Shown here: piece by piece, positions 56,554 through 59,295 of the stretch | How positions within the stretch are numbered: the first letter of the stretch is position 1 | Layout: each line of letters starts with the position of its first letter | Sequence record: MK524178.1 | Length of the DNA stretch: 64,000 nucleotides | Reading direction: 5' to 3' (one strand) | Origin: Escherichia phage PHB12 | The notes under the pieces: model-generated | Databases searched by the model: none | Told to the model about the DNA's origin: nothing | What the model saw: only the letters and a program-made list of their open reading frames with translations | Translations under genes and position numbers: made by a program

Positions 56554-56575
56554 ACAAAAGGGAGCCGAAGCTCCC
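56554..56575 (-). terminator. hairpin terminator after gene 52
   Basis: GGGAGC-TTCG-GCTCCC followed by TTTTG. Confidence 0.75.
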
Positions 56576-56651
56576 TAATCATGTTTGTCCAACCAATACA
56601 GCCAAATCACTAGTGCAGCTATTGCACCGAGAAATCCTAAGGCTAGGGCAC

Positions 56652-57977
56652 TCAAAGTGCCTCCAAGTCTTTAGTGTACTCTGTCACAACATCAGTAGAC
56701 TTCCAATACTCATTTTCTTCTTTCTTAGCTTTAGCTTCTTCTGCTAGTTTACGTGCTTCGTCGGAAGTGATATGGAAGATGTTAAGGCCTACCAGTTTAT
56801 CGACATGTTCTTTATACATTTCGATTTGTGCTAGCTCTTCAGTCAAAGCTTTACGAGTCTTGCCCTGAATCACAATTTCACCTGTAATAACTTTTTTGAT
56901 GAAGTGTGCCTTAGCAAAAGCCAGTTTAAATGCTTTTTCAGATTCAAGGATTTTGTTGTCAATACGTTTCTGAACGTAAGTCTTACGGACTTCAACAAAA
57001 TCTTTGATTAAGTCCACTACGTTATCGTAGACAGCTAATTTACCCTTTTCATTAATCACTGTGATGTTTTGTGAACGACGTTCGATGAGACTAAAATCTT
57101 TCATGATTTTTTCATGACGTAGCTCTTCATCATCAGGAAGCGAGTACTCTTTACGGAACTTCACCTTAAACCCAAAGCCGTGTTCACCACAATCATCTTC
57201 CCATGAGATTAGACCTTTGTCTTCCAGCGGGTCAAGAACCTTACTCACATACGTTTCACGGTCAAATTTATATGGGATTTCAGTTATCTGCATTTGAGTG
57301 CGAGATGTGAACTTATATGTTCCGTGAATCTCATAACGCCCATCAACTTCATGTACTTCACCACGGAATTCCGGGAATTCAACTTTTGGCTTAGTGACAT
57401 TTTTACCTTGAAGAGCTTGTAATACAGCCTTTTTGACTGATTTAAAACTATGAGGCAGAATATTTGTTGCGTAACCGGTTGCAATACCGGAGACACCATT
57501 CAAAAGAACTGTTGGAATAATAGGAAGATAGAATTTTGGTGGAATGTGTTCTTTATCTTCATGAGCTGGAGCATATTCAGTATCTTTATATACGTTATAG
57601 AAATTTTTACTTACACGAGCAAAAATATAACGAGACGCTGCAGCTTTTTGGACTGTTCGAGAACCAAAGTTGCCTTGGCCATCTAACAGTGGATAGTTGT
57701 TGTTCCATGTGTTAGCCATCAATGCACCTGCATCTTGTGCAGAAGATTCGCCATGGTGATAACCTAAATCTGCAACACCACCTGCAATTGACGCAAGTTT
57801 ATGAAATTTTTCTTTATTACCACGAGCCAAATCTAACGCACGATGAACCACAAAACGTTGAACCGGCTTAAATCCATCAATCATGTTTGGGATTGCACGG
57901 TTTTCAACGGTGTACATCGCATATGCTAAGGCTTCGTTATCAATAATACTTTTTAGATTACGAGAATTCAATTGCAT
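56652..57977 (-). CDS. 52: DNA topoisomerase II medium subunit gp52
   Basis: 441 aa; matches T4 gp52 throughout. Confidence 0.96.
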   Translation of the reverse strand: MQLNSRNLKSIIDNEALAYAMYTVENRAIPNMIDGFKPVQRFVVHRALDLARGNKEKFHKLASIAGGVADLGYHHGESSAQDAGALMANTWNNNYPLLDGQGNFGSRTVQKAAASRYIFARVSKNFYNVYKDTEYAPAHEDKEHIPPKFYLPIIPTVLLNGVSGIATGYATNILPHSFKSVKKAVLQALQGKNVTKPKVEFPEFRGEVHEVDGRYEIHGTYKFTSRTQMQITEIPYKFDRETYVSKVLDPLEDKGLISWEDDCGEHGFGFKVKFRKEYSLPDDEELRHEKIMKDFSLIERRSQNITVINEKGKLAVYDNVVDLIKDFVEVRKTYVQKRIDNKILESEKAFKLAFAKAHFIKKVITGEIVIQGKTRKALTEELAQIEMYKEHVDKLVGLNIFHITSDEARKLAEEAKAKKEENEYWKSTDVVTEYTKDLEAL

Positions 57978-57981
57978 ATTT

Positions 57982-58122
57982 TCACCATATTAATGAACGA
58001 ATAGCCATTATAACATCTGAAATGAAAAGCACTACTTGGATTAGTCCAAACATCACACCATAGTACAGAACCGTAAGCAACAACAAGAGCCCGAAGGCTC
58101 CTGCTAAGATTTTCTTAATCAT
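57982..58122 (-). CDS. small membrane protein (46 aa), not in supplied ORF track
   Basis: MIKKILAGAFGLLLLLTVLYYGVMFGLIQVVLFIS... two hydrophobic segments; TAATG-coupled to the upstream small ORF. Confidence 0.5.
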   Translation of the reverse strand: MIKKILAGAFGLLLLLTVLYYGVMFGLIQVVLFISDVIMAIRSLIW

Positions 58123-58268
58123 TACTCGCCTTTTAATACGTTAAGAAGAGCTAAGACCGCTAATGTACCTTGTGACACCGCCTGTTGAAATACTGTTGTT
58201 TCGCCTGTAACTAAAGTATTAATGAATAAAAACGACCAACACAATAATGCAATAATCCATGTTACCAT
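58122..58268 (-). CDS. small membrane protein (48 aa), not in supplied ORF track
   Basis: MVTWIIALLCWSFLFINTLV...LAVLALLNVL; SD GAGGT; at the position of T4 ac/stp between ndd and 52. Confidence 0.5.
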   Translation of the reverse strand: MVTWIIALLCWSFLFINTLVTGETTVFQQAVSQGTLAVLALLNVLKGE

Positions 58269-58289
58269 TTTAATTACCTCAAAAATAAA

Positions 58290-58316
58290 TTAAAGGCCTA
58301 TTAAGCTAGGCCTATA
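58290..58316 (-). terminator. hairpin terminator after ndd
   Basis: AGGCCTA-6 nt-TAGGCCT followed by a T-rich tract on minus strand. Confidence 0.55.
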
Positions 58317-58320
58317 TAAA

Positions 58321-58767
58321 TTAATAACTCTGCAGAATGAATTTGAAATTATCTGCCAGAAGACGGTTCATTTCAGTGAGTGTTTGATATTCTGATGTAT
58401 GGTTGCGAGTGAATGCCAGAGCCAATTGACCTTTACCATAACCGGTGGTCAGTGGTTTCATGTTCTTAGCTGCAACAAAGATTACATCATATTCGATATT
58501 GTTAGTGCCCATTGTACGGGCTAGTTGCGAACGGCCTTGACGAATGTGAGAAAGAATTGCATCCAACCCTTGTTTAGAACGTTGGCGTCCTACAAAGAAT
58601 CGTGCTGCCACTTGACGCCAATCAGACGAACCTTTAACAAAGAAGTAAAAACCTTCACGAGAACGAAACTCTTTAGAAACTTCAGAACCGTATTCGCCAT
58701 TACGAACTACTGCAACAACTTCACCGCCAACTGCCAGAAGGTCTTTACGAGTTAAATATTTGGACAT
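58321..58767 (-). CDS. ndd: nucleoid disruption protein Ndd
   Basis: 148 aa; conserved core FYVGxQRSKQG...LSHIRQxRSQLART...[22 protein letters not shown] as in T4 Ndd. Confidence 0.9.
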
Positions 58768-59104: not shown

Positions 59105-59212
59105 TTAAATTACATTAAAATATGTTAAAGCCAACCATGTTCCAGTGAACGAACATGCGATGTAAAAACCTGTATCGCAAATTGTTCTTAGTACAATAAG
59201 TGCATTTTTCAT
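59105..59212 (-). CDS. possible small protein (35 aa), not in supplied ORF track
   Basis: ATGA-coupled to the upstream micro-ORF; SD GAGGT. Confidence 0.3.
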   Translation of the reverse strand: MKNALIVLRTICDTGFYIACSFTGTWLALTYFNVI

Positions 59213-59295
59213 AAGTACCTCAATACAATTGAAAATATTATACAAATCATAGGGATACTAAGCAACCATATTCCGATCCACATTTTAGAGCTCAT
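59209..59295 (-). CDS. possible small hydrophobic peptide (28 aa), not in supplied ORF track
   Basis: MSSKMWIGIWLLSIPMICIIFSIVLRYL; ATGA-coupled on both sides. Confidence 0.3.
   Translation of the reverse strand: MSSKMWIGIWLLSIPMICIIFSIVLRYL

Follow-up and report, generated by a model that had tools for sequence, protein, structure and literature searches.

The two small overlapping genes between ndd and gene 52 of Escherichia phage PHB12 are very probably RB69-type orthologues of T4 ac and 52.1

Two very short, overlapping open reading frames (ORFs) occupy the interval between ndd and gene 52 in the 64,000-nucleotide stretch of Escherichia phage PHB12 DNA analyzed here (sequence record MK524178.1; hereafter, the window). 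We conclude that these ORFs are very probably the Mosigvirus (RB69-type) orthologues of the T4 genes ac and 52.1, arranged as the coupled string ac–52.1–52, in which Ac would raise the level of dye in the infected cell and gp52.1 would be a membrane protein. An original prediction had described the two ORFs accurately and had read them as ac and stp. That interpretation is half right and thus partly supported; the upstream ORF is ac, and the downstream ORF is not stp. The locus holds little for discovery, as the pair has been annotated since the RB69 record AY303349 was made and both families have been described. Its practical value lies in annotation, in that the gene adjoining gene 52 is 52.1 and not stp, and the only leverage that the window itself provides is a second, diverged Ac allele for comparison.

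All genes of the locus (ndd, ac, 52.1 and 52) are located on the minus strand, and the region is 97–98% identical to the Mosigvirus genomes (RB69 group, T4-like) vB_EcoM_SQ17, SF, HX01 and JS09. The upstream neighbor is ndd, encoding the nucleoid disruption protein (58321–58767; PF06591, E 4.3e-89; phrog_1102), which is labelled Ndd in HX01, SQ17 and RB69. Downstream of ndd, a 52-nt non-coding spacer (58269–58320) leads to ac (58122–58268; 48 codons, ATG start), the ATG of which is preceded at a distance of 8 nt by the Shine-Dalgarno sequence GAGG (58277–58280), as read from the sequence. The 52.1 gene follows (57982–58122; 46 codons, ATG start), and its start is fused to the ac stop; the plus strand at 58120–58124 reads CATTA and the coding strand TAATG, such that the TAA of ac and the ATG of 52.1 share one base. 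Only 4 nt (57978–57981) separate 52.1 from gene 52 (56652–57977), which encodes the medium subunit of topoisomerase II (PF00521, E 8e-78; phrog_551, E 4e-217). The tandem arrangement of two TAATG-coupled ORFs of 48 and 46 residues between ndd and gene 52 is confirmed, as are the predicted coordinates and overlap. A Shine-Dalgarno sequence had been proposed for each ORF; the GAGG of ac is such a sequence, whereas AAGGCGAG, located upstream of 52.1 and ending 3 nt before its ATG, is a weaker match.

The T4 interval between ndd and gene 52 comprises three small genes, in the transcription order stp (26 aa), ac (51 aa) and 52.1 (46 aa), while that of PHB12 comprises ac and 52.1 only. The gene order ndd–(stp)–ac–52.1–52 is common to Tequatrovirus, Mosigvirus, Gaprivervirus and Klebsiella- and Yersinia-infecting relatives. 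The extent of the overlap between ac and 52.1 differs elsewhere, with an ATGA-type overlap of 4 nt in HX01 and SQ17 and an overlap of 8 nt in T4. Directly after ndd, some relatives (three loci) carry a gene for an additional predicted membrane protein of 51–59 aa (phrog_5941), an insertion that shows further turnover of small membrane-protein genes at the ndd–52 locus. Other short hydrophobic ORFs were observed nearby. One, of 26 codons with a TTG start (56575–56655, minus strand; MSALALGFLGAIAALVIWLYWLDKHD), begins within gene 52 and shares 4 nt with the stop of that gene; another small membrane-protein gene below the 60-aa cut-off, it is annotated as a hypothetical protein in HX01 and occupies the position of T4 motA.1. 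Two more are present upstream of ndd.1 (59105–59295, minus strand), encoding 28 aa (phrog_8851, ‘outer membrane protein’) and 36–46 aa (phrog_18561); both are annotated in HX01, and they are part of the ndd.2–ndd.6-like cluster of small envelope proteins.

Profile and pairwise comparisons furnish the identity of both ORFs. The window Ac matches phrog_2501 over residues 2–48 (E 5.6e-22, with 2.2e-25 for T4 Ac against the same family) and BLASTP pairs it with T4 Ac over 35 aa at 34% identity (E 3e-7; overall range 28–34%). It is a 96% match to the RB69 Ac, annotated as ‘Ac acridine resistance protein’ and ‘ac’ in AY303349. A Pfam-A scan returned no match for the window Ac; close relatives carry a precomputed PF26944 assignment. 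The downstream ORF shares 74% identity with T4 gp52.1 along its full 46 residues, covers the 46-position model PF24129 (DUF7396) with its residues 1–46 (81.1 bits against a cut-off of 27; E 6.5e-23), and joins T4 gp52.1 in phrog_3595 (E 1.8e-23). For both proteins, NCBIfam and PADLOC scans yielded noise only. That Ac and gp52.1 might be paralogues of each other was also considered and rejected at an hhalign probability of 0.2%.

The pair is already known and named, because the RB69, HX01 and SQ17 records annotate ac and 52.1. In the RB69 record AY303349, ac (147 nt) and 52.1 (141 nt) likewise share one base, HX01 and SQ17 annotate the same pair with ac one codon longer, and the RB32 record remarks of its own ac that it is ‘more similar to RB69’. 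The notion that these genes had been overlooked does not hold; both are annotated in RB69, HX01, SQ17 and other records.

Both products are strongly hydrophobic (GRAVY 1.16 for Ac and 1.81 for gp52.1) and their AlphaFold2 models are all-helical, as had been anticipated. The Ac model, computed from a 24-sequence alignment, is a helix-turn-helix hairpin with helices at residues 2–21 and 24–45 (mean pLDDT 87), and the turn is placed at G22–E23, inside a conserved TGE. Spanning the turn and the start of the second helix is the conserved polar motif TGETxVFxQAxxQG. Six residues are invariant among the 24 sequences, namely W11, T18, V26, Q29, Q33 and G34; Gly34 aligns with Gly38 of T4 Ac and is not invariant among the most distant family members. 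The window Ac shows the family pattern of 47–52 aa, two hydrophobic helices, a short polar turn and the signature S/T-V-F/I-x-Q-A-x-x-Q-G, and its gene has the family position, following ndd (and stp, in genomes that have it) and running directly into 52.1 with an overlap. A word-indexed search recovered 26 clusters of the Ac family, and those with named sources derive from T4-like phages or enteric hosts, with the exception of one Enterococcus faecalis record. An exhaustive profile search recovered nine 50%-identity representatives among 1.84 billion proteins, all of 48–52 aa and all with the same motif. As judged from these searches, the Ac family is tiny and phage-restricted. No informative outgroup for Ac function is available, because the relatives are few and all are 48–52 aa proteins with the same motif. 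Among solved-structure chains, neither the Ac nor the gp52.1 family profile found a match at E values up to 10.

The gp52.1 model is one continuous helix from residue 2 to residue 45 (pLDDT 97). This predicted helix of ~44 residues would be too long for a simple single membrane span, and a tight hairpin would also fit, given the basic residues near either end (KK at positions 3–4 and R42) and an invariant YYG at positions 20–22. The YYG belongs to an invariant YYG...QVVLFISD core, encoded directly upstream of the topoisomerase gene 52. We envisage gp52.1 as a helical membrane protein of 46 residues, extremely hydrophobic and highly conserved, that would be made by re-initiation at the ac stop codon. 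The T4 deletions sa-delta-9 and GT7, which remove 52.1, ac, stp, and ndd through denB or rIIB, are viable; 52.1 is therefore non-essential in T4. The sa-delta-9 mutant also loses the T4-induced stimulation of phosphatidylglycerol synthesis, the deletion spanning about a dozen genes.

The length of an ORF is by itself no evidence for a gene at this locus, because many spurious ORFs of 40–78 aa are found in the same few kilobases. Substitution patterns indicate that both ORFs are under purifying selection. For ac, comparison with RB69 gave a dS of 0.28 and a dN of 0.018 (dN/dS ~0.06), and comparison of RB32 with YenP8 gave a dS of 0.67 and a dN of 0.08; between allele types dN is high, at 0.4–0.7. 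For 52.1, 24.8 of 32.8 synonymous sites and 18.2 of 105.2 non-synonymous sites differ from T4, and dN/dS against diverged relatives ranges from 0.07 to 0.18. Profile matches, a conserved position in five genera and purifying selection together uphold the claim that the ORFs are real genes for small membrane proteins. In the supplement of a T4 omics study, the transcripts of 52.1, ac and stp are classed as early. The final column of that list reads ‘none’ for 52.1 and ac, which we take to mean that no protein class was assigned; interpreted in this way, the supplement contains no proteomic detection of either product.

The 52.1 gene also carries nucleic acid signals within its coding sequence. 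Codons 6–14 encompass an RNA hairpin (58081–58106, minus strand) with an 11-bp stem and a C(UUCG)G loop, which folds at −16.5 kcal/mol (z −3.15); of 1000 synonymous recodings, 996 are less stable. Comparison with 1000 recodings that preserve the peptide showed an excess of native stability in the 5′ third of 52.1 in six of seven lineages (z −3.3 to −4.7) and none in the rest of the gene. Other lineages fold differently in the same place; T4-type sequences form two shorter hairpins and one Klebsiella phage has a third solution. Over 14 distinct T4-type sequences, the 13 pairs of the hairpins make up 182 pair cells, every one a standard pair; 6 of the pairs vary, one of them by a C-G to U-A double change, and the covariation is thus consistent, if limited. 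The hairpin is annotated as a rho-independent terminator in phage SA79RD and may serve as a terminator or stabilizer for the early ndd–ac transcript. Further downstream, codons 31–39 contain a putative MotA-type middle promoter for gene 52 (58007–58031, minus strand), with TGCTT at 58031–58027 and TATAAT at 58012–58007. No part of 52.1 is more conserved than the one that holds the match, TGCTTTT-N12-TATAAT; nine diverged sequences share its GTGCTTTT core without change, even at third-codon positions, and the SA79RD record places a T4-like middle promoter at this position. Scans of the entire window with Rfam and for tRNAs gave no hits.

A second hairpin is present in the spacer between ndd and ac, where a terminator-like match (58294–58313, minus strand) consists of AGGCCU-N6/8-AGGCCU followed by UUUAAUUUAUUUUU. 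It folds at −11.4 kcal/mol, a stability not significantly greater than that of shuffled sequences (z −1.5 to −1.6), and is labelled a rho-independent terminator in SA79RD. In T4-type phages, the counterpart is a C(UUCG)G hairpin with which stp closes, directly ahead of the ribosome-binding site of ac. The same stp-less spacer with the AGGCCU hairpin was observed at seven loci besides that of the window.

Two other readings of the pair have to be weighed against its assignment as ac and 52.1. According to one, the pair is T4 ac and stp, and one of the peptides activates or modulates the host PrrC anticodon nuclease. Stp of T4, a peptide of 26 residues that starts MSNFHNEH, is hydrophilic and basic and belongs to phrog_6763; neither window ORF matches phrog_6763. 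In a tblastn search of the whole window with Stp, the best E was 0.14, away from the locus, and no stp was found. The ORF adjoining gene 52 is the 74%-identical equivalent of gp52.1, and the 52-nt ndd–ac interval contains no ORF. All eight Mosigvirus-type loci compared (the window, HX01, SQ17, RB69, SA79RD and three more) have a 52-nt non-coding spacer in the place of stp. Loci of Tequatrovirus, Gaprivervirus and Dhakavirus do carry stp, which 707 phage records contain in total. The gp52.1 identity, the phrog_6763 assignment and the tblastn result refute the reading as ac and stp, which has position on its side, as T4 stp does sit between ndd and ac, and which is almost certainly wrong. The alignments to T4 Ac and Stp that the original prediction had put forward as a check thus succeeded for the former and failed for the latter. 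The predicted link to PrrC activation does not apply because the second gene is 52.1 and stp is absent; the predicted link to acridine sensitivity and the host membrane is reasonable, as one ORF is an ac orthologue. Without stp, RB69-type phages would not be expected to set off the PrrC anticodon nuclease through Stp. In a separate observation, weak Stp-like tblastn matches were obtained in five records of non-T4-like phages of siphovirus size (~50 kb); that of Escherichia phage vB-EcoS-XT34 reaches 64% identity over 25 aa (E 1e-3), and chance or a transferred stp-like peptide are both possible.

According to the other reading, the 52.1 frame encodes no functional protein, and its conservation stems from the embedded hairpin, the MotA-type middle promoter and the gene 52 ribosome-binding site. 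The selected hairpin in the 5′ third and the GTGCTTTT-N-TATAAT in the 3′ half, invariant across genera, are what such a reading would call for, and the ORF is left unannotated in many GenBank records and has no proteomic class in the T4 omics supplement. The coding pattern argues otherwise. None of the 21 distinct sequences, drawn from five genera, interrupts the frame or departs from its length of 46 codons; variable sites number 25, 14 and 36 of 46 at the three codon positions, with synonymous sites near saturation and dN ~0.2. Between Mosigvirus and T4, the hairpin region is wholly changed in sequence and structure and still encodes a hydrophobic helix. The protein retains 17 invariant residues, some of them outside the promoter hexamers, and every lineage couples its start codon to the stop of ac. 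We consider it highly improbable that 52.1 lacks a protein product, and we return to the assignment of the pair as genes for two membrane proteins, Ac and gp52.1.

What is known of Ac function comes from T4. According to a preprint (bioRxiv 10.1101/2025.06.30.662393), ac is defined genetically by deletions, insertions and the G38R substitution, which lead to acriflavine resistance; wild-type ac renders infection acriflavine-sensitive and its loss renders infection resistant in T4, T2 and PP01, and T4 with ac deleted plates on acriflavine. The preprint also reports that Ac of T4 expressed from a plasmid makes uninfected E. coli ~3 logs more sensitive to acriflavine and sensitive to ampicillin as well, and proposes that membrane-located Ac impairs AcrAB-TolC, a proposal repeated in a 2026 PNAS paper (PMC13250531). 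By homology with T4, Ac of PHB12 would insert into the inner membrane as the predicted two-helix hairpin, and its presence would cause acriflavine and other cationic planar dyes to reach a higher steady-state level in infected cells; wild-type phage would therefore be dye-sensitive and ac mutants resistant. The most likely route would be interference with an export or exclusion function of the inner membrane, with AcrAB-TolC as the proposed target, and dye sensitivity would be a side effect of Ac. The dye phenotype predicted for PHB12 derives from homology with T4 Ac, to which the RB69-type Ac is only 28–34% identical. The name ‘resistance protein’ for Ac is a misnomer.

Two alternatives to interference with export bear on the mechanism. 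Ac might instead make the envelope permeable to dye, by influx or a membrane lesion and without blocking an efflux pump, as in the proposal of Silver (1964, 1967), cited in the preprint, that an early, energy-dependent membrane modification raises acriflavine uptake. A minimal two-helix hairpin is a form typical of small membrane-perturbing proteins, and the ampicillin sensitization described in the preprint is as compatible with a general barrier defect as with pump inhibition. However, the preprint authors favor efflux inhibition, and the accessible part of their text reports no growth defect in the absence of dye. We regard a permeability lesion as possible, on the less probable side, and interference with efflux as somewhat more likely to be the mechanism of Ac. 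That Ac and gp52.1 tether the phage topoisomerase to the membrane or modulate it, with acridine sensitivity arising by topoisomerase poisoning, would be in keeping with the tight string of ac, 52.1 and 52 (a 1-nt overlap and a 4-nt gap), with the label ‘membrane-associated’ for gp52 in the RB32 record, and with the acriflavine resistance that mutations in the topoisomerase genes 39 and 60 also confer (Miller et al. 2003, as cited in the preprint). Plasmid-borne Ac sensitizes uninfected E. coli, in which there is no phage topoisomerase; gene 52 has its own middle promoter inside 52.1, as annotated in SA79RD; and an unrelated protein can fill the position of ac while gene 52 stays the same. A topoisomerase-directed role is thus very unlikely, and interference with an inner-membrane export function remains the route that we favor.

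The position of ac upstream of 52.1 is a swappable slot. It is filled either by Ac (phrog_2501) or by a two-helix protein of 53–55 aa (phrog_9347), never by both, as found when ten loci (L008, L009, L015 and L020–L026) were set against four (L003, L005, L007 and L010). The phrog_9347 protein is the occupant in Dhakavirus and in some Gaprivervirus, and both occupants occur within Gaprivervirus; either one overlaps the 52.1 start. The possibility that phrog_9347 is a diverged Ac was rejected at an hhalign probability of 0.3%. Coupling and adjacency are the only ties between gp52.1 and Ac; gp52.1 may act in the membrane together with whichever protein occupies the slot. A variable occupant beside an invariant gp52.1 would fit a two-component membrane complex, the variable subunit of which tracks a variable host target. 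The hairpin, the promoter and the swappable slot suggest a compact, dual-coded module of regulation and host interaction, with gp52.1 as the partner of the slot occupant and with a 52.1 hairpin that may end or stabilize the early ndd–ac transcript just upstream of the gene 52 middle promoter. We put this module forward tentatively and think it rather unlikely as a whole; it leaves the verdict on ac and 52.1 unaltered. A literature search found no description of an Ac–gp52.1 complex or of a role for the 52.1 hairpin.

Taken together, the pair can be placed among known systems. T4 Stp, the 26-aa PrrC activator of phrog_6763, shares with the pair its neighborhood only, lying between ndd and ac in T4; it resembles neither ORF in sequence, it is hydrophilic and basic where the two ORFs are hydrophobic, and its gene is missing here. 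E. coli AcrZ, an inner-membrane protein of 49 aa and a single helix that binds AcrB and adjusts the range of its substrates, resembles Ac by functional analogy only, in being a very small helical inner-membrane protein connected with AcrAB-TolC, a connection that for Ac is a proposal. AcrZ has one helix whereas two are predicted in Ac, and AcrZ assists the pump that Ac is proposed to impair; no sequence relationship between the two was found, the Ac profile having matched no solved structure at E up to 10. Ac of T4 and RB69 (phrog_2501; PF26944) is the close comparison for the upstream gene. Ac of the window has 48 aa against 51 aa in T4, with two hydrophobic helices and the central SVFxQAxxQG, including the glycine mutated in the acriflavine-resistant variant of T4; it is encoded between ndd/stp and 52.1 with its stop overlapping the 52.1 start, and it stands at 96% to RB69 Ac. 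It differs from T4 Ac in its identity of 28–34% only, in an N terminus that is four residues shorter, and in a C terminus that reads KGE where T4 has ND, and the overlap with 52.1 is therefore 1 nt (TAATG) and not 8 nt. For the downstream gene, the counterpart is T4 gp52.1 (PF24129, DUF7396; phrog_3595), likewise of exactly 46 aa, 74% identical, with YYGVMFGLIQVVLFISDVIMA unchanged, and likewise immediately upstream of gene 52. The difference is concentrated at residues 7–18, which are AGAFGLLLLLTV here and GYSLALAALLVA in T4, and the RNA hairpin at these residues is one 11-bp stem in PHB12 and two short stems in T4.
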